From Candidatus Berkelbacteria bacterium (GTDB lineage: Bacteria; Patescibacteriota; UBA1384; CAILIB01), in assembly GCA_043751595.1 (NCBI GenBank), contig JAYUZR010000035.1, forward strand, positions 2,534-66,533: DNA of 64,000 bases, given 5' to 3'. Positions 2,990-60,300 of this stretch are shown here, one piece after another. Positions within the stretch are counted from its first letter, which is position 1; every line of letters begins with the position of its first letter. The notes beneath the pieces are model-generated. The model did not search any database. It was not told the origin of the DNA and worked only from the letters and a program-made list of their open reading frames with translations. A program made the position numbers and the translations under genes.

Positions 2990-3004
2990 CCAAGTATAGC
3001 AAAC

Positions 3005-3798: not shown

Positions 3799-3830
3799 AA
3801 AAAAAGCCCCTCCTTTCGGAAGGGCTTTTG
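3799..3830 (-). terminator. Rho-independent terminator of pyk
   Basis: On the minus strand the hairpin AGCCCTTCC-gaaa-GGAGGGGCT is followed by TTTTTTT. Confidence 0.6.
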
Positions 3831-3838
3831 CCTCTGTC

Positions 3839-3902: not shown

Positions 3903-3905
3903 CTC

Positions 3906-4955
3906 TTAGAAGTAGTTCGGGCGGTGATACATAGCTTCTTCAGCGCGCTTAACAATCTTTACCATGGTGGCCAGAGAGTTAATTGGGTCAATACCAGCAG
4001 CTGTTTCTTCGGAAAGCATCACTGCATCGCTACCAGCAAATACTGCGTTCGCCACATCTGAAACTTCAGCGCGGGTTGGGCGAGTATTTTTGGTGATAGA
4101 AAGCATCATCTGAGTAGCGGTGATGACTGCCTTCTTAGACCAGCGGCATCGCTCGGTAATCTCGCGCTGCAGTACTGGAATATCTTCCATAGGCATCTCG
4201 ATACCAAGATCGCCACGGGCAATCATCACGATATCGGAACCATCGATAATCTCCTGAAGGTTAGCAATCGCGCGGCGACGCTCTACCTTAGAAATAAGCT
4301 TAATATCGCGACTGCCGATCATGGCACGTACTTCATCAAGCTCTTTTCGACTATCAACAAAGGAAAGTGCAATCGCATCTACTCCTGGGGCCGTATTAAG
4401 CAAGAAATCAAGATCACGATAATCTTTTTCGGTTAGCGCAGGAGAGCTCAGGTTGGTATCGGGAACATTAATACTCTTGCGTGACATCAAGATACCACCA
4501 GAGGTGATTCGAACAGCGATACGGTGACCCTTCACCCAACTAACAATGCCCTCAATGGCACCATCCATGAAGGTAATATATTCCCCTGCTTTTACATCAT
4601 TATGCAACGTGGAGTCGTTGATCAAAATCTCATCGGAAGATTCTGGCTCACCAACGTTCATGTAGAACGTATATTCCTTATCGGTATCAAGAGGAATGCC
4701 GGCATCTGGCAAAATACCAACGCGGATATTTGGACCCTGAAGATCGGCCTGCATCTTGGTTTCAGCACCATGCTTAGTCTTAATCTCTTGCAGCATGTTG
4801 TAACGAGCGGTGTACTCATCGTACTGGCAGTGCGCAAAGTTATTGCGCAGCATATCGGAGCCGTTGAGAATCAGTCCTTCGATAATTTCGGGACTAGCAC
4901 TAGCAGGACCCACCGTAGTAACAAACTTAGTCCAGGTGCCTGAAAATTGGTTCAT
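3906..4955 (-). CDS. pyk: Pyruvate kinase (short form without the C-terminal regulatory domain)
   Basis: Motifs MIARGDLGIE, TATQMMLS, TRAEVSDVANAV and GSDAVMLSEETA. The start was taken at MNQFSGTWTKF rather than the longer ORF. About 350 aa, so it lacks the allosteric C-terminal domain. Confidence 0.85.
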   Translation of the reverse strand: MNQFSGTWTKFVTTVGPASASPEIIEGLILNGSDMLRNNFAHCQYDEYTARYNMLQEIKTKHGAETKMQADLQGPNIRVGILPDAGIPLDTDKEYTFYMNVGEPESSDEILINDSTLHNDVKAGEYITFMDGAIEGIVSWVKGHRIAVRITSGGILMSRKSINVPDTNLSSPALTEKDYRDLDFLLNTAPGVDAIALSFVDSRKELDEVRAMIGSRDIKLISKVERRRAIANLQEIIDGSDIVMIARGDLGIEMPMEDIPVLQREITERCRWSKKAVITATQMMLSITKNTRPTRAEVSDVANAVFAGSDAVMLSEETAAGIDPINSLATMVKIVKRAEEAMYHRPNYF

Positions 4956-5066
4956 GAATTGTTCTTTTCTTAAGAAATAAAGTCGACTGAACAAGCAGGT
5001 GCTAGTCAGCCGAGAACGGGTCGTACTATACTCTATTTACAGACCTTACGTAAACCTATCATTTTA

Positions 5067-5444
5067 ATGGTCCAACTCTTACTCGCCAAGCTGATTGGCC
5101 TACAAACTGCGTACGCCATCGTATCAGACCAAGCGATCAAACCAGCATCTTCCAGTGTCGGAACTGGGGGCCTTTTTGATCTAGGTAGCGATGCTACTGC
5201 CACGGTAAACAGTCTTACCTCCAGCGCCGTGGATACTATCGGCCTAGTGGCAGGTGCTTTAGCTATTATCTACATCCTTTGGTACGGCATTCAGTATATC
5301 CTCTCTGGCGGTGTACCCGATAAAACTAAGGTTGCACGGCAAGGAATCATCAACGGCGTTATCGGTATTGTTATCATTACAGCAGCCTATGCCGTAATCC
5401 GTTTCGCTGTTGCCATCGGAAATAAGGCTGCATCCGTTATCTAA
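5067..5444 (+). CDS. T4SS pilin-like protein (VirB2/TrbC-type), paralog 5
   Basis: Signal peptide ...LQTAYAIVS. Core IIYILWYGIQYILSGGVPDKTKVARQGIINGVIGIVIITAAYAVIRFAV. Confidence 0.55.
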   Translation: MVQLLLAKLIGLQTAYAIVSDQAIKPASSSVGTGGLFDLGSDATATVNSLTSSAVDTIGLVAGALAIIYILWYGIQYILSGGVPDKTKVARQGIINGVIGIVIITAAYAVIRFAVAIGNKAASVI

Positions 5445-42328: not shown

Positions 42329-42580
42329 ATGTCAACAGTCCAGGTTACCCAATTCCAAACCCACCCTAACGACACCGGTTCTGTACAGGTACAGATCGCG
42401 CGTCTTAGCCAAACTATCACCGAGCTCACCGAGCACCTTAAGCTTCACCGCAAAGATCACAGCTCACGCGCTGGTCTTCTTAAAATGGTTGGCCGCCGCC
42501 GCCGTCTACTTAATTACCTATCGAACAACAGCCAGAGTTCCTACGCGGATCTCATCAAAGAGCTAGGGCTTCGTAAGTAA
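42329..42580 (+). CDS. rpsO: 30S ribosomal protein S15
   Basis: [48 protein letters not shown]. Sits immediately upstream of pnp, the classic rpsO-pnp arrangement. Confidence 0.85.
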
Positions 42581-44685
42581 TGGCGCTTCAGCGCTATACC
42601 AGTCTACTAGGAGAGACCAAGCTCACATTCGAGTTTGGTCGCTTTGCTGAACAGGCCCACGCAGCTGTCACCGTACAGGCTGGTGAGACCGTAGTACTGG
42701 CCACCGTTGTGGTTGCTAAACAAGAGCGCGAAGGTATCGATTACTTCCCTCTTATGGTTGATTACGAGGAGCGTCTCTACGCTGCTGGTAAGATTTCTGG
42801 CTCTCGCTTTATTAAGCGCGAAGGCCGTCCATCTGAAGAAGCCATTCTTACCGCCCGCCTCGTCGATCGTCCGCTCCGTCCCCTCTTCGATAAAAAGTTT
42901 CGCCGCGATGTTCAGGTAATTATTACCGTTCTTTCGGTAGATACCGAGTACGACCCAGATGTTTTGGCGATTATCGCCGCTTCTGCCGCTCTAAGCAAAG
43001 CTGGCAAGGCTCCTTTTGCCGGACCAGTTGCCGCTTGCCGCATTGGTATGATCGACGGAAAACTCGTGGTACACCCTACCCGCCTTCAGATGGAAGCATC
43101 CGATCTCGATTTGGTTGTAGCTGGTACTGCTGACCGCATCATGATGGTTGAAGCTGGCGCTAACGAAGTTCCTGAAGATGTAATGCTTGAGGCACTTAAA
43201 CTCGCACAGAGCTCGATGCAAGATGTGATCAAGACTCAAAAAGAGTTCTTCGTCCCCTATTCTTCTGAAGAAGCTATCAAGGCTGGGCCAACTGCCGAAG
43301 ATACTATTATCGAGCAATACGGATCAGCCATTAAGGCCGCTTACGCTACTGGCGCAGATCGTCGCGAAAAGCTTGATGCCCTTCTGGCCACTATCTTGGT
43401 TGAGCTTGATGGCAAGTTTAAGCAAAGTGAGATTAAGACTGTTTTCGGCAAGTTGTTCGATAAAGAAGTACGCACCGCTATTCTCGATCGCAAAGAACGC
43501 CCAGATGGTCGCGCCATTACCGAGGTTCGCCCAATCACTATTGAGGTCGGCCTCCTGCCCCGCACTCACGGATCTGGTTTGTTCACTCGCGGACAGACAC
43601 AGGCTCTTACCATTGCCACCCTTGGCGCACCTGGTGATGAGCAGATGATTGACACTATGGAGACCGAAGGTACCAAGCGCTACATGCACCACTACAACTT
43701 CCCTCCGTTTTCAACCGGAGAGACCTCCCCTGTTCGTGGCGCATCCCGCCGCGAGATTGGGCACGGAGCCCTCGCTGAACGCGCCCTGGTGCCCGTTTTG
43801 CCGGATAAGGATACTTTCCCCTACACCATTCGTTTAGTGTCCGAGATTCTGTCCTCAAACGGTTCTTCGTCGATGGCTGCAACCTGCGGCTCTACCCTCG
43901 CCCTTATGGACGCTGGTGTGCCCATTAAAAAGCCAGTTGCCGGTGTTGCTATGGGATTGGTTACCAACCACGACTCTAGTGTGTTCGAGGTCTTAACCGA
44001 TCTACAGGGACAAGAAGACTTCTCTGGCGATATGGACTTCAAGATTGCTGGAACAAGAGATGGTATTACTGCTATCCAGATGGATACCAAGATTGCCGGT
44101 CTTAGCTGGCCCATTATTGAGCAGACGCTTACTCAGGCCTACACCGGGCGTATGCACATTATGGATAAGATGCTCGAAGCTCTTCCTGAGCCTCGTGCCG
44201 ATATCTCTGCCTATGCACCGCGCATTGTGGCGATCAAGATTGCTCCCGAGAAAATTGGTGAGCTTATCGGACCTGGTGGGAAAAACATCAATAGAATTAT
44301 TGATGCAGCTGGTGGAAAGTCTGTTACCTCAATTGATATTGAAGAGGACGGAACGGTTCTTATTTCTTCAACCGACGCTGAGTTAGCCCAACACGCTATC
44401 TCTGAGATTCAGGCCATTGGCCGCGTAATCGAGGTTGGTGAGGTGTTCGATGGCTACGTTGCCGGTATCGTGCGTGATCGTAACGATCCTACTAAGGAAA
44501 TTGGAGCAATCGTTGAGTTCTTGCCTGGCAAGGATGGTATGGTCCATATTTCTCAAGTTAGCAACGAGCGTATCGCCAATATTTCATCTTTGTTGAATGT
44601 TGGTGACACCGTACGCGTTAAGGTGATTGCCATTGATCCAGAGAAGGGACGCTTCTCCCTCTCGATCAAAGATGTGACCGACTAG
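42580..44685 (+). CDS. pnp: Polyribonucleotide nucleotidyltransferase (PNPase)
   Basis: Two RNase PH domains, a KH domain (IGELIGPGGKNINRI) and a C-terminal S1 domain. Its ATG overlaps the rpsO stop. Confidence 0.9.
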   Translation: MALQRYTSLLGETKLTFEFGRFAEQAHAAVTVQAGETVVLATVVVAKQEREGIDYFPLMVDYEERLYAAGKISGSRFIKREGRPSEEAILTARLVDRPLRPLFDKKFRRDVQVIITVLSVDTEYDPDVLAIIAASAALSKAGKAPFAGPVAACRIGMIDGKLVVHPTRLQMEASDLDLVVAGTADRIMMVEAGANEVPEDVMLEALKLAQSSMQDVIKTQKEFFVPYSSEEAIKAGPTAEDTIIEQYGSAIKAAYATGADRREKLDALLATILVELDGKFKQSEIKTVFGKLFDKEVRTAILDRKERPDGRAITEVRPITIEVGLLPRTHGSGLFTRGQTQALTIATLGAPGDEQMIDTMETEGTKRYMHHYNFPPFSTGETSPVRGASRREIGHGALAERALVPVLPDKDTFPYTIRLVSEILSSNGSSSMAATCGSTLALMDAGVPIKKPVAGVAMGLVTNHDSSVFEVLTDLQGQEDFSGDMDFKIAGTRDGITAIQMDTKIAGLSWPIIEQTLTQAYTGRMHIMDKMLEALPEPRADISAYAPRIVAIKIAPEKIGELIGPGGKNINRIIDAAGGKSVTSIDIEEDGTVLISSTDAELAQHAISEIQAIGRVIEVGEVFDGYVAGIVRDRNDPTKEIGAIVEFLPGKDGMVHISQVSNERIANISSLLNVGDTVRVKVIAIDPEKGRFSLSIKDVTD

Positions 44686-44734: not shown

Positions 44735-44811
44735 TGGTCGGCTTGATGGGACTTGAACCCATGACCGGCGCCTTATAAGAGCGCTGCTCTAACCAGCTGA
44801 GCTACAAGCCG
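44735..44811 (-). tRNA. tRNA-Ile with a UAU (TAT) anticodon, CCA encoded
   Basis: Reverse complement is CGGCTTG-TA-GCTC-AGCTGGTTA-GAGC-A-GCGCT-CTTATAA-GGCGC-CGGTC-ATGGG-TTCAAGT-CCCAT-CAAGCCG-A-CCA. U33 and A37 flank the TAT anticodon. Confidence 0.75.
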
Positions 44812-46773: not shown

Positions 46774-48006
46774 ATGGCCCAATCAGCCAAAACAACTGAT
46801 GTCTCTATGGCATCCCTCCTCAAGGAACTAGGAGGTAAAGCAGTACCATTCGTTCCCGGTGCAGTCGTCGAAGGCACCGTTATGTCATCCTCCGCAAACC
46901 GAGTCTGGGTAGATATCGGTGGCGTTGCTGTTGGTGTTATTCCTGAGCGTGAGCTTTCGGTCCTTTCGTCCGATCTCAAGCCAGGTGATCCCATCACCGC
47001 TTCAGTCCTCGTACTAGAAGACAACCGTGGAAACATGGTTCTTTCTCTACGCCGTGCTGATCGCGAGCGCATCGTCAACGAGCTTACCTCTCGCGCTAAG
47101 GATGGTGAATCTATGCAGGTTAAGGTTTCCGATGTTAACAAGGGCGGCCTCTTGATCGAACTTGGTGACTTCACTGGATTCCTACCTGTATCTCAGCTTG
47201 CTACCGAACACTATCCACGTGTTGAAAACGGTAACACGGATGAAATCTATGCTCGCCTCAAAGAGTTGCATGGCCAAATGCTTACGGTTAAGGTTCTTAC
47301 CTTCGATCAACAGCAGGGCAAGCTTATCTTCTCCGAGAAGGCAGCTGGAGACGCTATTCAGGAAGCTAAGCTTACCAAGATCAAAGAAGGCGATATCCTT
47401 GAAGGAAACATCACTGGTATTGTCGATTTCGGTATCTTTGTTCGCCTTGGCGATCCAGAGAACTCCCTTGAGGGATTGGTTCACATCTCCGAAATTGCTT
47501 GGGGACGTGTCACCGATATCTCATCTCTCTACAATGTGGCAGACACCGTTAAGGTATTGGTAGTTTCTACCGCCGATAACCGCGTATCGCTCTCCATCAA
47601 GCGTTTGCAGCCAGATCCTTGGCAGCAAGCCGCTCAGAAGTACTCAGTAGACGATACTGTTTCTGGTCAGGTAACTCGCATCACTCCATTCGGAGTATTC
47701 GTTCGCCTCGACGCTGAGATCGATGGATTGGTTCACATTTCCGAGATCTCAAGTGAGCGCATTACCGATCCAGGTAGCGTACTGCACATCGGCGAAACCT
47801 TTGAGTTCAAGATCATCTCGATCGATCCTCAACAGCACCGCCTTGGTCTTTCTTACAAGCGCCTACACGAACCAGAAGCACCTAAGGGTGAAGATGGCGA
47901 AGCTAAGCCAAAGAAGAAAGCTAAGCGCAAGCTAGCCGAGACGGCAGAAGTTACTGAAGTGGCAGAACCTGCCGCTGAAACTCCTGAAGAAGTTGTAGCT
48001 GCCTAG
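46774..48006 (+). CDS. rpsA: 30S ribosomal protein S1 (four S1 domains, Lys/Glu-rich tail)
   Basis: Repeated S1 OB folds (GAVVEGTV..VWVDIGG, GDILEGNITGIVDFGIFVRL, DTVSGQVTRITPFGVFVRL). Confidence 0.85.
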   Translation: MAQSAKTTDVSMASLLKELGGKAVPFVPGAVVEGTVMSSSANRVWVDIGGVAVGVIPERELSVLSSDLKPGDPITASVLVLEDNRGNMVLSLRRADRERIVNELTSRAKDGESMQVKVSDVNKGGLLIELGDFTGFLPVSQLATEHYPRVENGNTDEIYARLKELHGQMLTVKVLTFDQQQGKLIFSEKAAGDAIQEAKLTKIKEGDILEGNITGIVDFGIFVRLGDPENSLEGLVHISEIAWGRVTDISSLYNVADTVKVLVVSTADNRVSLSIKRLQPDPWQQAAQKYSVDDTVSGQVTRITPFGVFVRLDAEIDGLVHISEISSERITDPGSVLHIGETFEFKIISIDPQQHRLGLSYKRLHEPEAPKGEDGEAKPKKKAKRKLAETAEVTEVAEPAAETPEEVVAA

Positions 48007-48007
48007 T

Positions 48008-48475
48008 ATGCAGATTACACGCACCCCTGATGGGTCCGTACGCCTTGAGAGTAAGCCAACTTGGCTTACTCTCGGCGTTTCTGTCACCCTTCACGACCAA
48101 GATCTTCATGGGCCTGGTGAATACGATATCACCGGCATTCAGTGCCAGCAGTTGTACCTTGGCAAAGGAAAGATCAGCATCATTCGTCTCGAAGATCTGA
48201 TTATTTCTTACGTTGAAGGTTACGACACCGCTATCGCTAAGGCCGAGGGAGTATCCAACACCCATCTCCTCGTTGTTCGTACCGATGCTCTTACCAGTAT
48301 CGATCAGCTACGTGCCCTTATTAAGGAGCTCGACCCTGGATACGTACTCTTAACTGGTAGTAACCACAAAGAGTTTGAAGAGGCGGCTGGTCTTTCTCTT
48401 CAGACTGGTTCTACCCTTAAGGTAACCAATGCTAGCCTTCCTCAAGAAGGCTGCCTTCTGGCTACTCTCGCGTAG
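48008..48475 (+). CDS. Hypothetical protein
   Basis: A 155-aa ORF tightly packed between rpsA and the DHH gene. Confidence 0.35.
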   Translation: MQITRTPDGSVRLESKPTWLTLGVSVTLHDQDLHGPGEYDITGIQCQQLYLGKGKISIIRLEDLIISYVEGYDTAIAKAEGVSNTHLLVVRTDALTSIDQLRALIKELDPGYVLLTGSNHKEFEEAAGLSLQTGSTLKVTNASLPQEGCLLATLA

Positions 48476-48481
48476 GCGATT

Positions 48482-49435
48482 ATGCAGCTTCCATTACGCC
48501 TGCTCACCCCTGGTGAGCAGGTTGTGTTAATTTCCCACATCAACCCCGATGGCGACGCAGTAGGTTCTTTGCTCGCCCTTGCTTTGGTCCTTAAAAACCT
48601 AGGGTGGAAGGAAGTTATCCCGGTACTGAGTGATGGCGTGCCAAGTAGCTTTAACTACCTCCCGCTTAGTAAGGCGGTTATCCGAGAAGTCCCGCTCCAC
48701 GCTGATTACTGCATACTTCTTGATGCCAACGAAACAAGTCGATCTGGCCAGCATGATGCTCTGCAGCAGTACCTGGCTACCGACCGTCTTATCGTGATTG
48801 ATCATCACCCGCCTACGCAGCTTATCAATCGAGCAGTTGATCACCTTCACCAGGTAGATATTTCCTCAACCTGCGAAATACTGTACACCGCCTTTCGCGC
48901 ATCTAAGATTAAGATTACTGCAGAGATTGCCACCTGCCTCCTCACTGGCATCTTTACTGATACTGGTGGATACCATCACAGCAACACTCGCAATGAGACC
49001 CTTGAAGCCTGTGGCTTTTTGATGCGCTGTGGGGGGCGACTTGATCAAGTAGTAAGTAACTTAGTACAAGGTAAAACCTTAAGTAGTTTACGCCTCCTCG
49101 GGATTGCCCTTGAGCGAGTCACTATTACCTCCAAGGGGCGCTGTGCAGTAACCGCGCTTACTCAAGCAGACATCGAGGGTACCCAGGCTACAGCTGCTGA
49201 TATTAGCGGTATCGTGGGCCATCTCGCCATGCTGCCAGGGGTTAAGTGCGCACTCCTCATTAGTGAGTTTACACCGGGGATTGTACGCGGCTCCCTACGT
49301 ACCACAGAAGGCTCTACAGCCGACGTTGAGCGTCTAGCTAAGTTACTAGGAGGTGGAGGCCATAAGAAGGCGGCTGGATTCTCTGTGTATGGCCATATTG
49401 AAGTAAGGGGGCAAACCTGGAAGGTGGTTGCCTAA
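48482..49435 (+). CDS. DHH/DHHA1 phosphoesterase (second NrnA-like paralog)
   Basis: ISHINPDGDAVGS, VIDHHPPTQ and GGGGHKKAAGF. Confidence 0.6.
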   Translation: MQLPLRLLTPGEQVVLISHINPDGDAVGSLLALALVLKNLGWKEVIPVLSDGVPSSFNYLPLSKAVIREVPLHADYCILLDANETSRSGQHDALQQYLATDRLIVIDHHPPTQLINRAVDHLHQVDISSTCEILYTAFRASKIKITAEIATCLLTGIFTDTGGYHHSNTRNETLEACGFLMRCGGRLDQVVSNLVQGKTLSSLRLLGIALERVTITSKGRCAVTALTQADIEGTQATAADISGIVGHLAMLPGVKCALLISEFTPGIVRGSLRTTEGSTADVERLAKLLGGGGHKKAAGFSVYGHIEVRGQTWKVVA

Positions 49436-49478
49436 CCTAAGGCAAATCGCTAGTATTCCAGTCGGTATCGGTTTATGT

Positions 49479-49564
49479 GCCACGGTGGTGGAACGGTTAT
49501 ACACGGCGGACTTAAAATCCGCTGAGCCTAGCTCTTGCGGGTTCGAATCCCGCCCGTGGTACCA
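49479..49564 (+). tRNA. tRNA-Leu (TAA), class II, CCA encoded
   Basis: GCCACGG...anticodon loop CTTAAAA, variable arm GAGCctaGCTC, T-loop TTCGAAT, CCGTGGT-A-CCA with a G1-U72 wobble. Confidence 0.8.
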
Positions 49565-49592
49565 GCCAAGTCCTTTGGGACTTGGCTTTTTT
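49565..49592 (+). terminator. Rho-independent terminator after tRNA-Leu
   Basis: GCCAAGTCC-tttg-GGACTTGGC followed by TTTTTT. Confidence 0.65.
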
Positions 49593-49605
49593 AGTATCAA
49601 CGTAT

Positions 49606-49634
49606 TTGTTGGAAGACTTCACCCGCGGTATACT
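49606..49634 (+). promoter_or_regulatory. Candidate sigma70-like promoter of the T4SS-like operon (TTGTTG, 17 nt, TATACT)
   Basis: Read from the sequence between the terminator and the first operon gene. No SD sequence ahead of the first ATG. Confidence 0.3.
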
Positions 49635-49670
49635 ATTCGTGTGCAATTCCAGGTCCCCCAGAACATCACG

Positions 49671-50102
49671 ATGGAAGATAAAATCATCGGGCCACTCAGC
49701 CCGATCCAGTTTGGTATCGTCACCATTGGGGGCTTAGCCGCTTTTGTTATCTTTAGTTCAGATGGCCTGCCCAGTCCCATTAACAAAATAATCGGATTTT
49801 TTCTGGCCATGATCACCCTAGCCCTAGCAATGGGTAAGTTTAACGATCAACCACTCTACTCGTTCACTAAGTACATTATCCTTTTTGTTACCTCACCCAA
49901 GACCAGGGTTTGGAAAAAGAATGGGGGAATGGAGCCCGTTCTTGTTAAGCCTACACAGCGCTCTGGAGCAGCTGATCAAGCCAAGGTGATCAAGCACGTA
50001 CGCAAAAACGATATTGCCCAACTTGCCACTATTCTTGATAGCCGCGGTACGGTAGGGAAGAGCCCCACCATCGCAACCAGTAGAGGGACGACAAAATCAT
50101 GA
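49671..50102 (+). CDS. VirB3-like small membrane protein (PrgI/ConD-like) of a Gram-positive-type T4SS
   Basis: Two TM helices (PIQFGIVTIGGLAAFVIF; IIGFFLAMITLALAM). Lies immediately upstream of, and overlaps (ATGA), the VirB4 N-domain gene. The longer ORF start overlaps tRNA-Leu and was rejected. Confidence 0.4.
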   Translation: MEDKIIGPLSPIQFGIVTIGGLAAFVIFSSDGLPSPINKIIGFFLAMITLALAMGKFNDQPLYSFTKYIILFVTSPKTRVWKKNGGMEPVLVKPTQRSGAADQAKVIKHVRKNDIAQLATILDSRGTVGKSPTIATSRGTTKS

Positions 50103-50887
50103 GCGCAGCTGGAGCCTCCACCCAAGACCACCTACCTGTCGCAGGTATCCAGGATGGGGTAGTAATCATGAACGACACTTCAGTACGCGCCATCTTACGG
50201 GTGCAACCGATTAACTTTGAACTAAAGTCAGAGGCCGAGCAAAACGCCATCATCTACAGCTACCAATCCTTCCTCAACTCACTCGATTTCCCGGTTGAGA
50301 TTGTTATTAATTCTAAGAAGCTCGATCTTGAGCGCTACCTACGCAAACTGGAAGAGCAAAAGAAAAATCTTTCAAGCGATCTTCTTAGAATCCAGATCGA
50401 AGATTACGTAAACTTTGTCAGGCGCCTTATCACGATTGCCAACATTATGGCTAAGCGCTTCTACGTAGTAGTAAGTTACGCTGCAGTTACAGGCGCCAAG
50501 GCATCGAGTGGATTCTCTCTTAGTACGGTACTAGGTATTGGTGGCGGAAATACTCAGGCAACTCTCTATCAAGACCAGTTTGATCGCTACAAGGCAGAGC
50601 TAGGCAATAGGGCTAACATTGTTTCTGCCGGGCTTACTCGCGTAGGTTTAAGGGTTGAACCCCTTACCACTCAAGAGATTATCGAGCTCCTCTATGGTGC
50701 TTATAACCCCGACATTGCCCAAGAAGAGCGGCTTACTGATGTGTCTGCCCTTAGTGCTGGTATCGTATCATCCGAGAACGTTGCACCACCCTTGGAACAA
50801 GCTGCAGAAGTTCCTCCAGTAGCCGTGCCAGAGGCTGCCCCTGCTCAACCAACCGCCAATCCACCACAACAGCCACCAGCTGTATAG
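50099..50887 (+). CDS. VirB4/TraC-like N-terminal domain, ending at an in-frame TAG 6 nt before the ATPase ORF
   Basis: VAGIQDGVVIMNDTSVRAILRVQPINFELKSEAEQNAIIYSYQSFLNSL matches the CagE/TrbE/VirB4 N-domain. It ends in a Pro-rich linker, and the next ORF is in the same frame. Confidence 0.55.
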   Translation: MSAAGASTQDHLPVAGIQDGVVIMNDTSVRAILRVQPINFELKSEAEQNAIIYSYQSFLNSLDFPVEIVINSKKLDLERYLRKLEEQKKNLSSDLLRIQIEDYVNFVRRLITIANIMAKRFYVVVSYAAVTGAKASSGFSLSTVLGIGGGNTQATLYQDQFDRYKAELGNRANIVSAGLTRVGLRVEPLTTQEIIELLYGAYNPDIAQEERLTDVSALSAGIVSSENVAPPLEQAAEVPPVAVPEAAPAQPTANPPQQPPAV

Positions 50888-50893
50888 CCGACT

Positions 50894-52693
50894 ATGCGCC
50901 TACTCTCCTTTCTTCACCCCGATTCCAGCGATTCTAACGCGCAGGCTGCCGAGCAGGCGGCTATGGCTACGTATCAGCAGGGACTCACTACCACGCGTGA
51001 TATTATTGCCCCCTCTGATTTCATTGTAACTTCCAACTATCTTCAGCTTGGAAGCTACTATGTGCGCACCCTGTTTGTGTACACCTACCCAAGGTTCTTA
51101 AACACCAACTGGCTCTCCCCAATCATCAACTACGATCTTACGATGGATATTGGGATGTATATTCATCCTCAGAATGTCCAGGAGGTAATGGGATCACTAC
51201 GCCGTAAGCTTTCTCAGCTAGAATCTACCCGCCAGATCAACGAAGAAAAGGGACAAGTTCGTGATCCAGAAATTGATCTCGCCATCAGCAACATTGATCA
51301 ACTCCGCGATAGCCTGGCCCAGGGGACTAATCGCCTATTCCAATACGGCCTCTACTTCACTATTTACGCAAAAAGCGTAGACGAGTTATCAACCTTATCA
51401 AAGCAGATCTCATCTACCCTTGGTGGAATGCTTATCTATACCAAAGAGGCACTTGTACAGATGGAACAGGGTTTTACCGCCACTCTCCCACTGGCTAAAG
51501 ACGAGCTTAACATTCAGAGAAACCTGGACACTGGCTCACTCTCTACCACCTTCCCATTCACAACAGCCGAGCTGACCTCCGACGAAGGAATCTTGTACGG
51601 CATTAACCGCCACAACGACTCATTAATTCTGTTCGATCGGTTCAATCTTAATAACGCAAACTCGGTAGTATTCGCTACGTCTGGTGCAGGAAAATCCTAC
51701 TTTATTAAGCTAGAGATTCTGCGTTACATGATGCTTGGCACCGATGTAATCGTTATCGACCCAGAGAACGAATACAAAGCCTTAGTAGACGCAGTAGGTG
51801 GAAGCTACCTAGAAATTAGCCTTAATGCACCCAAGCGCATTAATCCTTTCGATCTTCCGACCACGGTGCATCCAGAAGATGCAAACGAAGATGTCCTTAG
51901 AAGCAATATCACCAGCCTCCACGGCCTGATCAGACTAATGGCTGGGGGATTAACCCCGGAAGAAGATTCAGTCCTGGATAAAGCCCTGTACGAGGTATAC
52001 GCCCTTAAAGATATTACCTCCGATCCTTCTACCTATAAGAATCCACCGCCACTTCTTACTGATCTTATTTCCGTACTGGGTAATCTGCGTGGTGCCGATG
52101 GCCTTGTTCTTCGCCTAGGTAAGTTTGTCGATGGAAGTTATGCCGGTCTCTTTAACCAACCGACCAACTTTAGCCTGAGCGGCGGACTTGTTGTATTCTC
52201 GGTTCGTGATCTAGAAGAAGCACTTCGCCCTATCGCCATCTTCACCATTCTTAACTACATCTGGAATGTAGTGCGCTCCGATCTTAAGCGACGCATCATG
52301 GTAGTAGATGAGGCCTGGTGGATGATGCAATACGAAGACTCTGCCCGCTTCTTGTACGGACTAGCTAAGCGCGCCCGTAAGTACTTCTTGGGTCTTACTA
52401 TTATTTCTCAGGACGTTGAAGACTTCCTCTCAAATAAATACGGAAAGGCGGTAGTGTCTAACTCGGCCATGCAGATCCTCCTAAAGCAATCTACTTCTTC
52501 GATTGAATCAATTGCGGCGGTGTTTAATCTGACCGAGCAAGAAAAGTATTTGCTGATTAACGCTGGAGTGGGCGAAGGCCTTTTCTTTGCCGGGCTGAAC
52601 CATGTAGCCATTAAGGTTACCGCCTCGTATACCGAAGATCAGATTATGACTACTGATCCGAAGCAATTACTCGCAATGCGTGGCTCGCTTTAG
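50894..52693 (+). CDS. VirB4/TrbE/CagE-like T4SS ATPase domain
   Basis: Walker A ATSGAGKSYF, Walker B IMVVDEAWWMM, and the conserved ISQDVEDFL and NSAMQILLKQ blocks. Confidence 0.75.
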   Translation: MRLLSFLHPDSSDSNAQAAEQAAMATYQQGLTTTRDIIAPSDFIVTSNYLQLGSYYVRTLFVYTYPRFLNTNWLSPIINYDLTMDIGMYIHPQNVQEVMGSLRRKLSQLESTRQINEEKGQVRDPEIDLAISNIDQLRDSLAQGTNRLFQYGLYFTIYAKSVDELSTLSKQISSTLGGMLIYTKEALVQMEQGFTATLPLAKDELNIQRNLDTGSLSTTFPFTTAELTSDEGILYGINRHNDSLILFDRFNLNNANSVVFATSGAGKSYFIKLEILRYMMLGTDVIVIDPENEYKALVDAVGGSYLEISLNAPKRINPFDLPTTVHPEDANEDVLRSNITSLHGLIRLMAGGLTPEEDSVLDKALYEVYALKDITSDPSTYKNPPPLLTDLISVLGNLRGADGLVLRLGKFVDGSYAGLFNQPTNFSLSGGLVVFSVRDLEEALRPIAIFTILNYIWNVVRSDLKRRIMVVDEAWWMMQYEDSARFLYGLAKRARKYFLGLTIISQDVEDFLSNKYGKAVVSNSAMQILLKQSTSSIESIAAVFNLTEQEKYLLINAGVGEGLFFAGLNHVAIKVTASYTEDQIMTTDPKQLLAMRGSL

Positions 52694-52712
52694 CGTAGTC
52701 GCCTAGTCAACT

Positions 52713-54662
52713 ATGCAAGAAAACGATCCGCTCAACTTGCAAGAGCCGATCAACCCTGATCAGCAGGGTTTTGATACTGAAGATTATCTCTCTCAACAAA
52801 ACCAAACCGTCTCAGACGGTGAGTTAAATGAGGGACTCGGCCAAGAATATATTCAACCGGCCTCTGGTATAGGTACGCAGCCCCATAAGCCTGGTAATGT
52901 GAGTGTAAATCCAGCTAATCAACCCAGGCGCTTTGGCTTATTTGGGGCACGCAAGACAAGTGATAAGGCGGATGCTCAAAAGCCGGATTCCAAGAGTAAA
53001 GATGAAAAAGTAGAGGGTCCCAAGACCGATCTTCCGGGAGCTAAGTCTGCAACGCAAGATAAAAAGAAAGAAGAAAAAGAAGGTGGGAGCGCAGTAGGAG
53101 CAGCCGGGCGTACTGCCGCAGAGATGAAAAAGATTGCTGCAACCTCCGGTGGTAACGGATGGGTGGCTGCAGGGCAATACCTAAATAAGCTTCGCACCAG
53201 CTCCCAGTTTAGAAAGGATCAGCTTAAGACAATGGGTACGGTGCGCAAAGTGCAGCTTGTGCTCCTTTGCCTTGCCTTAGTTATTCCACTTTTTGTTGGG
53301 ATGCTCTTCTTTGGTCTAGGCGGTGTAAGCGGGGACAATGTAGGGAGATTGGCGGATACCACTGGAACGGTTGGAACTGCTTCTGGGGATGGGACTTTTA
53401 ATGCAGGTGGAATATTTACTTGTGAACTACGAAGCTTCCTGGATACTATCGCCTCTCACGAAACAGGTGAGACAATGACACGCGAGCATTATGGCTGGTC
53501 TCAAAATGGCCACAAACAATTTGATGCCCTGGATCCCAAATGGGATACCGCGTTTCCACCAGGAGAATCTAGTGGAAGAAACATCGGCAGATATCAGATT
53601 GATCCTGATCCAGGAAAAGATGGAGATATCCAAGATGCCCAAGCGGGCCTAGATAAAGCCAAGATCCCCTTTAAAATCACTGGGTACAGTGCTAAGCAAC
53701 AGGATTATGTAGCATTGGGTAGGTGGTACTTTGGTACGTACAGAAAAACAAGAGGAGGAGTCAATATGCGCACTAATTATGGCCAATATGCGTCGCCTGA
53801 GTATCCTCAAAAACTACTTGAAAATGGCGAGGAGGGATTCAAAACTGCGGTCGTTATCGCATCTACAGACTTCGCTAGCACACCTGTAGTTATTCCCGCT
53901 ATCCATGCCGATCCGGGGCAGTCCCATGTAACATTTGAGGCATACTTTGCCTTCTATCAAAAGCGCCTTCAGTACTGCGGAACCCAGTCGCAAGGGGGAG
54001 CCGTCTCCAAGCCAGGTACCACCATACTTGCAGATGTTGCCGGAGCACACAGAATCCCGAATGTCCCGGGCGTTCAGCAGGCAGACAAGAGTAAGAGTAC
54101 CCGCCCAGATAAAACCGCAGGTGGTGGCCAGTGCGGAACAGCATCAACCCTAATGGTAACGCTATTCTATAAGCCAAGCTTCACCGATGGAGCCAAATTA
54201 GATACTGGCAATACAGCAGGCAGCAGCAGACTGAGCGTTAAGCCATATCAGTTTATCCCTAACCTTATTAACTATTTAAATGAAAAGTCAGGGGTTACCT
54301 GGACAATGATTGAGCAAAAACAAAAAACCAAAGCAGAGCTTCTCTCGATTATGACAAAGTCGATCGATGGCGGTGATCCCATGATCGTATACACCGGAGC
54401 GATTATTTACCCTATGGCACACATCTATGTTGTAATGGGCTATGACGCAACAAGTTTTTATGTAAATAATCCGCACCCTGGTGGGGTAGATATGGCCACA
54501 AATAAAGCTCACAATGGTGCTGCGCCAACTATCGATACCGTACTGAGTGCAGGTGCCAAAGACGCAAACCCCGTAGAATACGCAAAGTACAACTACCGTA
54601 ATGCAGAGCATGGTAGCCATAATAATAATTTCCTTATTGTCCGCTCTAAGTACGTAAAGTAA
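52713..54662 (+). CDS. T4SS-associated cell-wall hydrolase (CwlT/VirB1-like): cytoplasmic K/E-rich N-terminus, TM, lysozyme-like domain, C-terminal CHAP-like Cys/His peptidase
   Basis: TM helix VQLVLLCLALVIPLFVGMLFFGL. Muramidase-like region IASHETGETMTREHYGW...GRYQIDP. CHAP-like region GGGQCGTASTLMV and MAHIYVVMGYD. Confidence 0.45.
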   Translation: MQENDPLNLQEPINPDQQGFDTEDYLSQQNQTVSDGELNEGLGQEYIQPASGIGTQPHKPGNVSVNPANQPRRFGLFGARKTSDKADAQKPDSKSKDEKVEGPKTDLPGAKSATQDKKKEEKEGGSAVGAAGRTAAEMKKIAATSGGNGWVAAGQYLNKLRTSSQFRKDQLKTMGTVRKVQLVLLCLALVIPLFVGMLFFGLGGVSGDNVGRLADTTGTVGTASGDGTFNAGGIFTCELRSFLDTIASHETGETMTREHYGWSQNGHKQFDALDPKWDTAFPPGESSGRNIGRYQIDPDPGKDGDIQDAQAGLDKAKIPFKITGYSAKQQDYVALGRWYFGTYRKTRGGVNMRTNYGQYASPEYPQKLLENGEEGFKTAVVIASTDFASTPVVIPAIHADPGQSHVTFEAYFAFYQKRLQYCGTQSQGGAVSKPGTTILADVAGAHRIPNVPGVQQADKSKSTRPDKTAGGGQCGTASTLMVTLFYKPSFTDGAKLDTGNTAGSSRLSVKPYQFIPNLINYLNEKSGVTWTMIEQKQKTKAELLSIMTKSIDGGDPMIVYTGAIIYPMAHIYVVMGYDATSFYVNNPHPGGVDMATNKAHNGAAPTIDTVLSAGAKDANPVEYAKYNYRNAEHGSHNNNFLIVRSKYVK

Positions 54663-54964
54663 TGCCCTCTCCAACCCCTTGTCCTAACCCAGGAGTCCTT
54701 ACCAACTGCTCTCAGAGCACGCTACAGGGGTATGCTCAGGCTATTATCAACGATAATATCGGATACATTTTTACGATTGCTTTAATCATGATCATCTACT
54801 CAGGGGTTGAGTATATGTACTCCGGTTTCTCTCCTGATAAACAAAAATCTGCCAAGCAGCGCATCATTGGTATTATTACCGGACTTGTATTCTTCCTCTT
54901 GCTTCAGGTAATCCTCAATCAGATTACCGATATTAAGGGCCTTCCCACCGTTAGAAGTCATTAA
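54662..54964 (+). CDS. T4SS pilin-like protein (VirB2/TrbC-type), paralog 8, inside the T4SS-like operon
   Basis: Core IIYSGVEYMYSGFSPDKQKSAKQRIIGIITGLVFFLLL. Its ATG overlaps the upstream stop. Confidence 0.5.
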   Translation: MPSPTPCPNPGVLTNCSQSTLQGYAQAIINDNIGYIFTIALIMIIYSGVEYMYSGFSPDKQKSAKQRIIGIITGLVFFLLLQVILNQITDIKGLPTVRSH

Positions 54965-54966: not shown

Positions 54967-56304
54967 ATGGCCGAATTACCTGAGCAGGCACCAGTTCCGG
55001 CTATCCCACCTCCCCATCCTTTTAGCACACCACCATCGTTTGCTCAGGCGCCTAGGCAGGGTATCCGAGGAAGGCTTGATTCTATTCTCGAGCGTGTCCC
55101 GCGCCAGACCTGGCTTGGCCTTGGGGTACTAGCCGGGGTTCTCATTATTGGGGCCATTATCCTTCTCGCTTATGCAGCAAACAGGGGAGGAATCTTAGTA
55201 AAATCAGCCGCAGATCAGCCGCTTACTATCCAACTAAACGGCGCCACTACCAAACCTACCAAGCAAGGTACTGATTACTTCTTGCGCACGTATACCGGCC
55301 GATACAATGTAGTAGTTAAGCGAGATGGCTACGAGCCATATTCCCAAGATATTACCGTGGGTAGCAAACAGACAGTAGTTATTCGCCCCATCTTTAGCCT
55401 TTTGCCACCCGAAGGAAGTGCCGACCCAATAGTTTCGGTAGACCACGTACGGGCAGATCCCGCCAACAATAAGCTCTTCTTTGTGGGAGATAGGAAAAGT
55501 GGTCTCTACGAACTACCTCTGGCAACCCGCATTCCTCGCAAAATTAGTACCAAGGCAATGCCTGGTATCTATGATATTGAGTGGTCTAAAGATCCTAATG
55601 TAGCCATTATTCTTGCTAACCAGGGGACATTCCTGCAAGAGATTCCAACCTTCGATTTTCAGAATCAGCTTACCGCCCAGATCTCTGGACCAGAGGTAGA
55701 AAGCGCTGCTTGGGATCCTAATGACCAGAGTAGATTAGCGGTAAGTATTACTCGCACCAATGGCGAACACTCACTTATTTTTACCGATAAAAAGCTAGTA
55801 AAGCTGGACCGCAAGGCCGATCTTACCGGCATCGAGAATCCGCACCTTACCTGGAGCGCCGATTCGCGGGTAATCCTTTTGGTTAGTCGCAGCAAGGACC
55901 CTAACCAGAACAATATCTGGAAGTACACCACAGCAGATGGAACCCTGAGCCAAGTAACCACCGATGGTGCGTGGGGTGGGGTAGAGATTTCTCCCAATGG
56001 CGATAAAGTGATCGCCGAACAGGATGGCAAACTTTACGCGCTTTCACTTAGTGACGGTAGTAAAACCGATATAAAGATTGTTGGTAACACCCGCCTTATT
56101 GCTTGGCGCGATAACGATAGTTTCTTTGTGCCAGACGTGGGCCGCAACAGGTTACTTTTAGCAAATCTTGATGGCACCAGAATCGAACTTTCCTTCAGCT
56201 TTACCAACCCGCACGAGATTCAAGGTCTATTGTACTTCCCAGAGCAGAAAATGATTGTTTTCTATACTTCCAGGGCCTTATACACCCTGTCGGTGGGTGT
56301 ATAA
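54967..56304 (+). CDS. Membrane-anchored TolB-like beta-propeller (PD40/WD40-like repeat) protein
   Basis: Pro-rich cytoplasmic N-terminus, a TM (LGLGVLAGVLIIGAIILLAY), then repeats with SPNGDKV, SADSRVI and DGT motifs. Confidence 0.45.
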   Translation: MAELPEQAPVPAIPPPHPFSTPPSFAQAPRQGIRGRLDSILERVPRQTWLGLGVLAGVLIIGAIILLAYAANRGGILVKSAADQPLTIQLNGATTKPTKQGTDYFLRTYTGRYNVVVKRDGYEPYSQDITVGSKQTVVIRPIFSLLPPEGSADPIVSVDHVRADPANNKLFFVGDRKSGLYELPLATRIPRKISTKAMPGIYDIEWSKDPNVAIILANQGTFLQEIPTFDFQNQLTAQISGPEVESAAWDPNDQSRLAVSITRTNGEHSLIFTDKKLVKLDRKADLTGIENPHLTWSADSRVILLVSRSKDPNQNNIWKYTTADGTLSQVTTDGAWGGVEISPNGDKVIAEQDGKLYALSLSDGSKTDIKIVGNTRLIAWRDNDSFFVPDVGRNRLLLANLDGTRIELSFSFTNPHEIQGLLYFPEQKMIVFYTSRALYTLSVGV

Positions 56305-56311: not shown

Positions 56312-57355
56312 ATGGCTGACTCCAGAAATACCACCATCCTCCTGACTGGAGCCATTGCTACCGTTTTTTTGATGAGCTTCCTGGCATCAGCAAGTATTGC
56401 TGGCACCAGAATCGGCTCCAGTAGCTCGCAGAGTGACGGCCCCAACCAGTTGGGTGCCACCAACACCAGCGCAGCTGTCCCTACCGATCCCCGCATCGCC
56501 AGCCTTACTCAGGCAATCACTCGCTTGGCAGACCCTAAAGCAACAGCTGCCGATAAAGCCTCTTCACTTACCTCAACCTCCAATAGCCTACTCGAGTTAA
56601 AAAAAGGTCTTGCTACTAATACAAAACTGACTCAAGAAAAAAAGACTGAGTACGGCACTAAAATTGATGAAGCCCTCACCCTGGTAAACCAGGCAAGTGC
56701 AGCTGCCAAGGCTGGTAATGGGGGAGCACAGTCTGCTGAGATCATGAAAAAGCTTCTCGCCAAGCTTGATGAACTCCCCGATAAAGACCGCAAGGCAATT
56801 TATGGAATTGAAACTGGTGGTGCCGCTGCGGCAGTAGCCTTTGCTATTGCGGCCGTAAATGCCAACGGCAATGGAGCCGCTGGTGGTATTTACCCTTACT
56901 CACACACTCGCCCTATCAACCCAACAGCATCCAACCCAGCCCAACGCGGCTTCGATTGCTCTGGCTTTGTGGGTTGGGTATTAAGCTCAGTCGGAGTTAT
57001 CACCCTCACCAATGGCCAGGTAGATACTCAGTTACTCTACGATAAAGCGGAGGCTGGCAAAGAGATAACTTCAGTACGTAAGGGCAAGCTCAGCTATTCT
57101 GATGCTCAGAATATGTACAAGTCTGGAGAGCTTAAACCTGGTGATATTCTCTTGAGTGGAATGTATAAGGGGCAGCGGGTTGAAGGAGTTTCTCACGTTG
57201 TACTCTTTTTGGGTGAAGTTGATGGAAAATTAATGGTGGCTGAATCTCAAGACCGAGACGGCAAACACGGCGTTCACTTTACTACCCTAGAAACACGCCT
57301 AAGTGGCGGAAGAGCTGGTGTAAGCCTACTAGCTAGACCCAACTATGCTGGATAA
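56312..57355 (+). CDS. NlpC/P60 family cell-wall peptidase, membrane-anchored
   Basis: TM near the N-terminus. Catalytic GFDCSGFVGWV (Cys) and VSHVVLFLG (His). Confidence 0.65.
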   Translation: MADSRNTTILLTGAIATVFLMSFLASASIAGTRIGSSSSQSDGPNQLGATNTSAAVPTDPRIASLTQAITRLADPKATAADKASSLTSTSNSLLELKKGLATNTKLTQEKKTEYGTKIDEALTLVNQASAAAKAGNGGAQSAEIMKKLLAKLDELPDKDRKAIYGIETGGAAAAVAFAIAAVNANGNGAAGGIYPYSHTRPINPTASNPAQRGFDCSGFVGWVLSSVGVITLTNGQVDTQLLYDKAEAGKEITSVRKGKLSYSDAQNMYKSGELKPGDILLSGMYKGQRVEGVSHVVLFLGEVDGKLMVAESQDRDGKHGVHFTTLETRLSGGRAGVSLLARPNYAG

Positions 57356-60300
57356 CCTGCGTAGTCGCCTAGTCGGGTTATCGTTAGCTGCACTTCTTAT
57401 TCAGCCAATTTTCCCATTGGTGGCGCAGGCAGCAGATGAGCAGACCGCAGCACAAACCATTCGTACCTGTTCAGAGCAAGTTGCAGACTACTACGAACGT
57501 GGCATTGATCCCGAGGGACTAGGGGAAGCTGTAGATACTGTGGCCTTTGAAGCTAATGATCCAGATAATCCACCAACCCCCGAGGAGTTGGCCGAGTACG
57601 AAGACTTCCAGAACATTACCGAGTTTGATAACGGTGAGGGAGTTAACGTCTTCAACCAAATTATCGACCTAAACGTTGTAAAAAATACCCCTGGTGCCCT
57701 CCCTGAAACCATCTCCCTCATCACCAGCGACGAATACGTAGCCAGCGTCATTGCCCTCTATGGTGACAATATTACTCACTACAAAACCAGTTTCTACGAT
57801 CTTATTGTGGTCTGTAAGGCATCGAGCGCGGTAATTGATGAAAGAATCTTCGACCCTTACGTTCCGATCACTCCAGACTTCTTAAGCCTGAGCGAGGCCA
57901 TCCAGCTTTCTTCTGCCAAGATTGCCTTTGCCCGAGCAGAGGATAAATACTACCTCCTAGGAGAACACTGCGAAGGTGGCCTTATTAGTACGCCAGCTAG
58001 CCAGTGGACCGCCGACACCAACCCCTGCCCAGGTTTTAAGCCAGAGGACGATATTATCCGAACCGGAAAATCACTAGGTAGATGGGATGCGCCCAAGGTC
58101 GATCCGCGTGTTCTCTATACCCTTCTCTACTTAGTTACTCCAACCGAAGAAGGTGGCGCTGGTCGTGAGTACATTAAAGTAGCTCGCTTAGTAGACCCCA
58201 TTTCAAGCAATATTCTTACCAACGCCGTTGCCAGCCCTTCGCCAGAAGCTAGTCCTTCTCCATCTCCTTCCGCCAGCCCTTCGCCATCCGCCTCGCCCAG
58301 CGACGAGCTAAAGTTTTCTAAAAGTAGTCAAGATGATACCGCCAAACAACCCGATCTTACTGGGTATCAAATTAATCCGGACGATGAACCTCACTTACCT
58401 ACCAAGGTAGCCAGCGCGGTTTCTATTAGTGAGATTGATAAAATCCGCTCGACTATTAAGATCACCAAGTATATTGGTATTTTTAGAAAGAAGTCGCGCG
58501 AGTATAACTACTACGCCCCATACCCAGTAAAGGTAGCCTGGCAAACTGAGGCTGGCTCGGCTGCTCAATCTATCCCAACCTTTGCCCAACCCCAGCTCAA
58601 CCTTTTGGCTAATGGCCGCTTCTTGGCGAACCAAGGCATCGTTGAGATGCTCAACCAGAACGGACTTGGCGATCTTAAGCTTGATGCCAATAGTGTAGAA
58701 ATTAATTCCTTTGAGGACGTTGGTCGCTTGGTGGGAACGTCGCTAATCGAGCAATTACTAGGCACCCCTAATAACTCACTCAAGGGCTGGGATCTTACCT
58801 CTACCCTCGAGCAAATTGGTCGTGCTTACGCTGAGCAGCAAATCGGCCTTACCGCCGGGTCATTAGCAGAGGGTGACGATTTCCAGTCACTGGTTCGAAA
58901 TATTGGCCGTAGAACGATCGAGAAAAACTTAAACCTACCAGAACGCTCCTTGGCCGATGCCGGTGGGGATTCTTCGGTGTTACTTGAGAACCTTGGTAAG
59001 CGCTGGCTAGAGACCGAAGTACTTAAAATTAGCCCCGGATCCCTCGACGGTACTTCCGAGTTTCCAACCACCAAGGTCTCAGACCTCTTAGCCAGGGTGG
59101 GCGAGGGAAGAATAGAGGCGGTTATGAAGCTCCCGCGCCAGAGTATGCGCAAGAAGATCTACAGCGATAGTGATCCACAAAAAAGCTTACGCGATAGCAG
59201 TGTTAAGGCTCGCCTTACCTTCCCAGATGTTAAAGGGAGTCCTAAAGACGAAGATTATCTAACCGCCGATTATCTTAACTCGCTCCTAAGCCTTTCCTAC
59301 GTTGAATACAACGGTAGCGGGGCAAATATGTACGGCTTCACCAAAAATGACCTGCGTGACGCGGTTATTAACTTCTTTAAGGCTGGCAGCAACCAGAATG
59401 CCGTTGATACTTTTAAGCAGATTGTAGGAAGTAGAGTACTCGAGACATCGCTTGGAAGCTTCCAGTTGGGTGGAACGAGCACTCCAGTAACGAAGGAAAA
59501 GAAGCGTACGGTTGATATTACCAATTTAGGGCTTTTCACTTATGCAAAGGAGAAGGATGATAAGGGTAATCCTATCGCTTACGATTCCAACACCAAGTTC
59601 TATCCGTATTCTTGGTATCAAAAAATCCCATTTGGCGATCACGATACATTGGGCCAAGGAACACTTTGCGGCGCACTAGGGGAAGAGCCTTCAAACGATA
59701 GACTTCAGTTTGAAACCCCTGGAGGTGACAAATATACCGTGAAGTGTAATGAGCGAGATGAAGTAGCAAGTGATACCGCAGATACCAGCTTCTTTAAAGA
59801 TTTGCAGGAGTATCTTCTTTCGCCAGATCTTGTTACTCAAACCGAGTTTAGACCAGATGAAAGCATTCATAAGGCACCAGTATATGCCGACTACCTTAAG
59901 GCAACTCCCGATAACGAATCCTTCGCCAAGCGCAGGTACAACCACGACTACGTTGCCTACATTAATGACCCAAGGCTCAATGTTGCCGTACCTCGCAACG
60001 GAGTAACTGGCGCAGATAGAGCAAGTCTTAGCGCCAAGCCAGTTGCCAGCGCAAGCGATCTCAAGCCAGACGATGCCGCTGGCCTCGCGGCACTTTCTGC
60101 TATCGCACCAATTTCTAGTGCACGAGCCTTTATTAATCAGACTCCTGAGTTAGCTAATAGCGCGCCACTCCAGGCAACGCTTAATATGATTAGCGCACTC
60201 TATAGTACGCAGCAGTCGGTTGTGGTTAATGGGAAAACCGTTCCTCTCTTTGATCTCACCCCCGTAATGAATCAAGCAGGGGAAGAGCTACAGTATTCGC

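Follow-up and report, generated by a model that had tools for sequence, protein, structure and literature searches.

A TrsD-like gene followed by a short virB4 gene at a chromosomal type IV secretion locus of Candidatus Berkelbacteria

In most type IV secretion systems (T4SSs) VirB4 is a single chain of about 750-900 residues. In structures of the R388 system the protomers are joined by the N-terminal domains of VirB4, which also touch VirB3 and VirB8 at the membrane (review PMC12857230). A second layout involves TrsD, a protein reported to have remote homology to the N-terminal portion of VirB4 and to be confined to the pGO1 subclass of MPF_FATA (Quinonero-Coronel et al., Microb Genom 2025, PMC12102498). 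According to that article, TrsD is the T4SS component recovered in the greatest number from Patescibacteria, with 2,272 homologues in 2,221 assemblies; 1,664 of these homologues are associated with virB4, Gracilibacteria being a notable exception, and the TrsD homologue of Southlakia epibionticum ML1 is listed as essential. A VirB4 laid out in two genes is already known, being the normal, published architecture of the Patescibacteria T4SS. Here we analyse a locus of this kind in a stretch of 64,000 nucleotides from a Candidatus Berkelbacteria bacterium (GenBank assembly GCA_043751595.1, contig JAYUZR010000035.1, positions 2,534 to 66,533 of the forward strand), which as a whole is called the window below and in which all unassigned coordinates are given. 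A TrsD-like gene is followed by a short virB4 gene in the same reading frame with only a TAG stop codon and six nucleotides between them. This two-gene architecture is conserved in relatives, both products are homologous to VirB4, and the two cover VirB4 family models in a complementary manner. We consider it very probable that the TrsD-like gene genuinely stops with the TAG at 50885-50887 and that the short virB4 gene genuinely starts with the ATG at 50894.

The two genes are the open reading frames (ORFs) 50099..50887, referred to as N-ORF (the TrsD-like gene, 262 residues, ending in TAG), and 50894..52693, referred to as ATPase ORF (the short VirB4 gene, 599 residues, in which the Walker A motif ATSGAGKSY is located). 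Both lie on the + strand and start at positions congruent to 2 modulo 3, placing them in the same frame. The letters around the junction are CCA CCA GCT GTA TAG CCG ACT ATG CGC, and a translation read through them gives ANPPQQPPAV, the stop, and PTMRLLSFLHP. The intergenic junction as delimited by the sequence and by the junctions of relatives (50885..50893, + strand) comprises the TAG of the N-ORF and the 6-nt spacer CCGACT before the VirB4 ATG. An earlier note on this DNA had described two same-frame ORFs split by TAG-CCG-ACT before an ATG, a description which the sequence, the ORF list and the translation confirm. Its statement that TAG is a genuine stop elsewhere in the window holds as well: TAG closes 16 of the 44 long non-overlapping ORFs of the window, among them pnp (42580..44685) and the ATPase ORF. 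ARAGORN found nine tRNA genes in the window, none with a CUA anticodon, and on TAG usage and tRNAs, both judged within the window, there is no indication of TAG reassignment or suppression.

The ATPase ORF encodes a short-form VirB4 ATPase, as seen from NCBIfam and Pfam models, from the crystal structure PDB 4AG5 and from the sizes of its homologues. Of the VirB4 N-terminal domain it contains the distal part; the C-terminal ATPase domain with Walker A and B motifs is present, and the first approximately 180 positions of single-chain VirB4 models are lacking. Against NCBIfam NF045971 (VirB4-like, CD1110 family) it scores 355.4 bits at a cut-off of 325; having a Walker A/B domain and exceeding this curated threshold, it is a VirB4-family ATPase. 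Residues 27-574 correspond to positions 181-735 of the 752 positions of the CD1110 model and residues 23-584 to positions 292-892 of the 894 positions of the VirB4_plasma model, and positions 218-726 of the 792 in TIGR00929 are matched. Pfam finds P-loop_TraG (99.5 bits), AAA_10 and DUF87, and PF03135 (CagE_TrbE_VirB) gives a weak match to residues 33-199. Residues 228-586 align to 4AG5, the crystal structure of the C-terminal domain of Thermoanaerobacter VirB4 (E 2e-47), and residues 255-560 to residues 445-740 of R388 TrwK. Alignments to relatives by tblastn mostly start only at residue 30, from which it follows that the first approximately 30 residues are poorly conserved. The polypeptide does not carry a full N-terminal domain; what it lacks is encoded by the gene upstream.

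The TrsD-like protein consists of a conserved globular module of about 220 residues followed by a 40-residue tail rich in Pro, Gln and Ala and predicted with low confidence; hydrophobic segments were found neither in this protein nor in that of the ATPase ORF. The Pfam family PF26593 (TraC-like) is precomputed for the identical protein and for all of the best 120 of its 607 homologues, while the local Pfam copy, from which PF26593 is absent, gave just a sub-threshold match to TraC_F_IV. Among the NCBIfam models, residues 17-138 correspond to positions 11-132 of the CD1110 model, residues 8-125 to positions 104-233 of VirB4_plasma and residues 6-74 to positions 6-76 of TIGR00929; in addition, positions 11-65 of PRK13853 and positions 14-142 of the 201 positions of the TrsD/TraD model NF041427 (E 2e-6) are matched, all scores falling under the family cut-offs. 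A profile of the N-ORF aligned by hhalign to S. aureus TrsD over 179 columns with 21% identity (E 2.3e-5), and tblastn of the N-ORF against the trsD region gave an E value of 1.9e-4.

The predicted fold leads to VirB4. In an AlphaFold2 model built with 41 homologues (mean predicted local distance difference test score 77) residues 8-221 form an alpha/beta core, and the low-confidence tail extends from residue 222 on. When this model was compared with the PDB using Foldseek, the 14 best matches were all R388 TrwK/VirB4 (E 5e-4 to 8e-3), each spanning about 190-200 aligned columns, and the next PDB match had an E value of 0.25. By sequence, the N-ORF had only chance matches among PDB chains (E 0.49). 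In alignment A1 of the TrsD-like proteins the core contains 28 invariant positions and the Pro/Gln/Ala-rich C-terminal tail varies in length from 0 to about 150 residues; the PPQQPPAV of the window is the end of this variable tail. On the evidence of four VirB4 models, of the fold and of a naturally fused relative described below, the TrsD-like protein is homologous to the N-terminal portion of VirB4, and it is encoded by a separate gene between those for a VirB3-like protein and the VirB4 ATPase in the window, in relatives and in the staphylococcal plasmid pRM27.

Since the N-ORF and the ATPase ORF hit opposite ends of the same models, they cover VirB4 complementarily and without overlap, and between them account for the VirB4 models from roughly position 10 up to the C-terminus. 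These alignments also locate the break. The ATPase ORF retains about 220 residues upstream of its ATPase domain; the border between N-terminal domain and ATPase domain is therefore not where the break lies. The comparisons with 4AG5, PF03135 and the CD1110 model (752 positions) instead put it within the classical N-terminal domain of VirB4, at approximately CD1110 position 135-180, and the claim of the earlier note that the stop falls exactly at the domain boundary has to be given up.

The split is found throughout the relatives. A word-indexed search with the N-ORF returned 607 homologues, of which the best 120, from which sizes and identities were taken, are 46-100% identical and all 187-406 residues long; many of their contigs are 0.2-0.9 Mb in size. 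When 1.84 billion cluster representatives were searched exhaustively with HMMER, 2,656 relatives were obtained, and among the best 150, which were inspected, 149 are free-standing proteins of 161-478 residues. The best 120 homologues of the ATPase ORF, at 66-100% identity, are all 516-685 residues long. At relatives' loci the N-ORF has 54-73% and the ATPase ORF 66-85% identity to its counterpart, both being intact over their full length. The gene calls of four increasingly distant loci (L004-L007) comprise a PrgI-family or similar small gene, a TraC-like gene and an ATPase gene of 596-671 residues.

For a survey of the junctions all loci fetched from genome and metagenome collections were used, giving 61 distinct junctions of related Patescibacteria. 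Fusion was seen in none of them (0/61). With the frame of the N gene as reference, 17 of the ATPase genes are read in frame 0, 27 in frame +1 and 17 in frame +2; as the stop of the N gene, TAA occurs 38 times, TAG 14 times and TGA 9 times. The rule of taking the first start codon overstates some overlaps (-20 to -122 nt), and in those cases only frame, stop codon and non-fusion were used. Adjacent genes are expected to be in frame by chance one time in three; because the observed share of 17/61 (28%) is close to this value, the shared frame in the window is a coincidence. Spacing ranges from the 4-nt ATGA overlap to gaps of more than 100 nt: caATGA overlaps occur in L004, L006, L018, L019, L022 and L023, L005 has TGAttATG, L007 TAAATG and L008 (a Candidatus Saccharibacteria metagenome-assembled genome, MAG) TAGcacATG, and L020, with TAA, six nucleotides and ATG, has the spacing of the window with another stop codon. 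Of the named species representatives, the Saccharibacteria MAG is the one closest to the window; other relatives carry the labels "Patescibacteria group" and "Berkelbacteria". At the start of the ATPase protein a motif resembling M-x-[LF]-P-F was present in the four relatives read there (L004, L005, L006 and L008). Taken together, the comparison points to a split that is ancient and not recent. Regarding the earlier note, the comparison of orthologues it had proposed, single ORF versus split, finds relatives split at the same place. Its leaning towards an authentic, functional two-polypeptide VirB4 is, as far as the two-gene layout of relatives can tell, borne out. Its view that such a VirB4 would be unusual is reversed, the layout being standard throughout Patescibacteria and also in monoderm T4SSs of the pGO1/pSK41 subclass. 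Finally, the significance it had attached to an in-frame TAG with an ATG two codons on disappears, as relatives use all frames, all three stop codons and varied gaps.

One exception is instructive. The sole fused form among the best 150 representatives of the N-ORF is P0167, a natural TrsD-VirB4 fusion of 898 residues from a related lineage of Patescibacteria that has a Pro-rich linker where the window has the stop. Its gene follows PrgI and was found on five contigs, among them L100 (3001-5697) and L101 (1431-4127), which come from two different sequencing runs. P0167 is 36% identical to the N-ORF and 58% identical to the ATPase ORF and shares with the window the position after PrgI and the domain order; it differs in being one continuous ORF. 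The fusion shows these polypeptides to belong with each other and to tolerate being joined covalently.

How does the locus compare with the described systems? The closest is the T4SS of Patescibacteria (PMC12102498; Candidatus Southlakia epibionticum ML1, Wang et al., Cell 2023), with which the window shares a PrgI/VirB3-like protein, TrsD next to virB4, a VirB2-like pilin and cell-wall hydrolases. Compared with the TrsD and VirB4 pair published there nothing substantive differs, and the window adds one more member. The complementary model coverage of TrsD and short VirB4 and the existence of rare fused forms, neither being stated in the accessible text of PMC12102498, are small additions. More remote is the staphylococcal trs operon of the pGO1/pSK41 type. 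On S. aureus pRM27 (NZ_KT780704.1) the genes are ordered trsA, a CagC-family pilin-like gene, a small ORF, trsD (227 residues, annotated as "TrsD/TraD family conjugative transfer protein"), a 672-residue DUF87 ATPase, a membrane protein and a CHAP-domain protein, giving the same order of small membrane protein, TrsD and DUF87/VirB4 ATPase as in the window. Residue 32 of the ATPase of the window aligns with residue 32 of staphylococcal TrsE (E 3e-45), and therefore the break is at the same place in the staphylococcal system. The homology to staphylococcal TrsD is nevertheless very remote; the staphylococcal system is plasmid-borne and conjugative, whereas that of Patescibacteria lies on the chromosome, includes VirB2-like pilins and is reported to be essential for epibiotic growth, and the TrsD-like protein of the window has an extra Pro-rich tail as compared with staphylococcal TrsD. 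Single-chain VirB4 proteins are represented by R388 TrwK (PDB 7O41/8RTB), by the CD1110 family of Firmicutes integrative and conjugative elements (ICEs) and by the VirB4 of mycoplasma ICEs. The pair of the window covers their models, the predicted fold of the N-ORF matches TrwK and the ATPase domain matches 4AG5 and TrwK, but the chain is distributed over two genes with disordered ends flanking the break.

The best match of the VirB4 of the window in the plasmid collection, L099 (NZ_CP045273.1, "Priestia megaterium plasmid pFDU301A"), is noted separately. The record is 1.08 Mb long with one annotated feature, the stretch fetched has a GC content of 32%, and its nature as a plasmid looks doubtful. 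At 2103-5079 it contains a TrsD-like gene of 272 residues directly followed by a VirB4 gene, which is broken within Walker A (ATSGAG, insert, GRTKSYFVKLE) by an intron-like insert of about 290 nt (3674-3960). Compared with the group I intron model Rfam RF00028, the insert matched the full model with 36.2 bits at a gathering score of 50 (E 1.7e-7).

How could two polypeptides do the work of one VirB4? In the arrangement we envisage, the chromosomal T4SS locus would make VirB4 as two polypeptides. The tight packing of prgI (VirB3-like), trsD and virB4, with an ATGA overlap at the first junction and a 6-nt gap at the second, would favour co-transcription and translational coupling, and the three genes are probably expressed in this way. 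In a consensus scan of the + strand from 50100 to 52700 neither promoter-like nor terminator-like sites were found. The TrsD-like protein would then bind both the short VirB4 and the PrgI/VirB3-like protein, thereby supplying the missing N-terminal module in trans. By analogy with R388, and considering complementarity, synteny and the fused relative, this mode of association, together with anchoring at the membrane, appears most likely.

Several points weigh against this two-gene reading or against parts of it. First, there is no visible Shine-Dalgarno-like motif before the ATG at 50894, unlike in L007 and L008, which carry GGAG or GGAGG ahead of the start of the ATPase gene; initiation at this ATG would have to rely on coupling or on a start independent of a Shine-Dalgarno sequence. 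Second, with NF041427 the N-ORF reaches 27.8 bits, far below the cut-off of 200, and the hhalign probability for staphylococcal TrsD is just 76%, so that membership in the TrsD family in the strict sense would rest on remote homology and synteny. Third, expression and association of the two polypeptides in the source organism are what we infer from sequence. Fourth, TrsD-like and VirB4 proteins are not always genetically linked. In L010, L015 and L016, MAGs assigned to Peregrinibacteria or Gracilibacteria, and in L012, labelled 'bacterium', no match to the ATPase was found in the 4 kb or so that follow the TrsD-like gene downstream, suggesting that the TrsD-like module can be encoded apart from the ATPase; these Peregrinibacteria- and Gracilibacteria-labelled loci agree with the published exception of Gracilibacteria. 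In the two loci scanned upstream, L010 and L012, a PrgI gene lies just upstream of the TrsD-like gene. The further upstream neighbours in L010 and L012 are housekeeping genes (LepA and a class II tRNA synthetase).

Alternatively, programmed or leaky readthrough of the TAG could yield some fused VirB4 beside the separate products, as the earlier note had considered. The in-frame junction, the separation of stop and start by only two sense codons and the predicted disorder of the flanks would all suit such a mechanism, and a covalent link is tolerated in P0167. If readthrough were exploited, an in-frame layout might be kept by selection; the in-frame arrangement is not kept among relatives, the 17 of 61 junctions giving no sign of selection for it, and the closest relatives use out-of-frame ATGA overlaps. 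Moreover, TAG is a common stop in the window and no suppressor tRNA is encoded there, and the consensus scan revealed no hairpin at the junction, though the junction itself was not folded. Readthrough as a feature of this locus does not survive the comparison with relatives, and we regard it as very unlikely; any basal readthrough at the TAG would be of the ordinary low-level kind. A variant, in which low-level readthrough would provide a minor full-length VirB4 isoform resembling P0167 with a distinct role in assembly of the machine, is a geometric possibility alone and seems extremely improbable to us.

Could the TAG be a recent nonsense mutation that inactivated a continuous virB4 of about 860 residues, leaving a decaying locus? 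This second option of the earlier note finds some encouragement in the two ORFs being in frame and only two codons apart and in the existence of the fused 898-residue relative. It is refuted by the relatives: every close or distant one examined has the two-gene layout, with varied stops, frames and spacings, and intact single-ORF orthologues are not what the searches returned (149/150 free-standing, 120/120 short, 0/61 fused). Furthermore, both ORFs are intact and conserved, the start codon and N-terminal motif of the ATPase recur in relatives, the neighbouring T4SS genes are intact, and in a cultivated relative the TrsD homologue is reported as essential (PMC12102498). We give this explanation practically no chance. 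The same applies to a false stop created by an assembly or sequencing error, for which nothing specific speaks beyond the general fact that MAGs can contain errors: every relative has a stop at this place, and an artefact is very unlikely because three further public assemblies from two pipelines (a pair of ENA MEGAHIT contigs and a Logan contig) contain DNA identical to the window, with 0 mismatches over 3.1, 7.6 and 12.8 kb.

With the two genes read as a TrsD-like and a short virB4 gene, the junction between them should not be flagged as a pseudogene, frameshift or recoding event in annotations, and the upstream "hypothetical protein" would be better named TrsD-like VirB4 N-terminal module. 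The fact that VirB4 of Patescibacteria is split where the pGO1-type plasmids split it, together with the rare fusions, offers a clean natural system for studying the role of the extreme N-terminus. As the T4SS of Patescibacteria is reported to be essential for the epibiotic lifestyle, the divided VirB4 is also of modest biological interest.

The T4SS block, all of it on the + strand, begins right after a gene for tRNA-Leu(UAA) (49479-49564, ARAGORN), which together with a terminator-like hairpin with a T-run (49564-49587, terminator scan) forms its upstream limit. The first gene encodes a PrgI-family (VirB3-like) membrane protein of 153 residues with two hydrophobic segments (49641..50102; PF12666 PrgI, E 5e-7), the stop codon of which overlaps the start of the TrsD-like gene as ATGA. 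A mechanically called ORF for this protein, 49428..50102 (224 residues from a TTG at 49428), contains the tRNA-Leu(UAA) gene and the hairpin, and its 5' part is non-coding because the tRNA gene lies within it; the 205-residue call on the identical contig likewise overlaps the tRNA-Leu gene. The start is most likely the GTG at 49641, considering the sequence and calls of 131-152 residues in relatives. Upstream of the block, at 46774-49435, the window has rpsA (S1), an ORF of 155-156 residues without a family and an nrnA-like DHH/DHHA1 gene. The same housekeeping genes are present, at 57-64% identity, in L004-L006, the three closest of the relatives with gene calls, and their presence in the window and three relatives therefore indicates a stable chromosomal site and not a mobile element.

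Downstream of the short virB4 gene follows a protein of 649 residues with a peptidase C39-like domain (52713..54662; PF13529, E 1.5e-6), a candidate cell-wall hydrolase; a peptidase C39-like domain protein is also encoded near the VirB4 gene in L005 and L006. Next come a VirB2-like T4SS pilin of 100 residues with two hydrophobic segments (54662..54964; PF18895 T4SS_pilin, E 2.3e-7, and the NCBIfam Mbov_0395 pilin-like family), a protein of 445 residues with one hydrophobic segment for which no family was found (54967..56304), a gene of similar size (421-435 residues) being located downstream of the VirB4 gene in relatives, and an NlpC/P60-domain protein of 347 residues, as called on the identical contig L001 (56312..57355; PF00877, E 2e-6), which is a candidate VirB1-like peptidoglycan hydrolase. 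The 3' end of its gene is overlapped by a giant ORF (57345-64000, + strand) of more than 2,218 residues that exits the window at its end. This ORF has one N-terminal hydrophobic segment, a low-complexity stretch, SPSPSPSASPSP, and no Pfam match, and its product could be a secreted or surface protein tied to the T4SS. An rRNA operon, considered as a candidate for the ORF-poor stretch at 57.4-64 kb, was rejected, as there is no Rfam match and the stretch is occupied by the giant ORF.

Most bacteria decode AUA by a lysidine-modified tRNA with the anticodon CAU, and a tRNA-Ile(UAU) is uncommon. The window has a gene for a tRNA-Ile with the anticodon UAU at 44735-44811 on the - strand.

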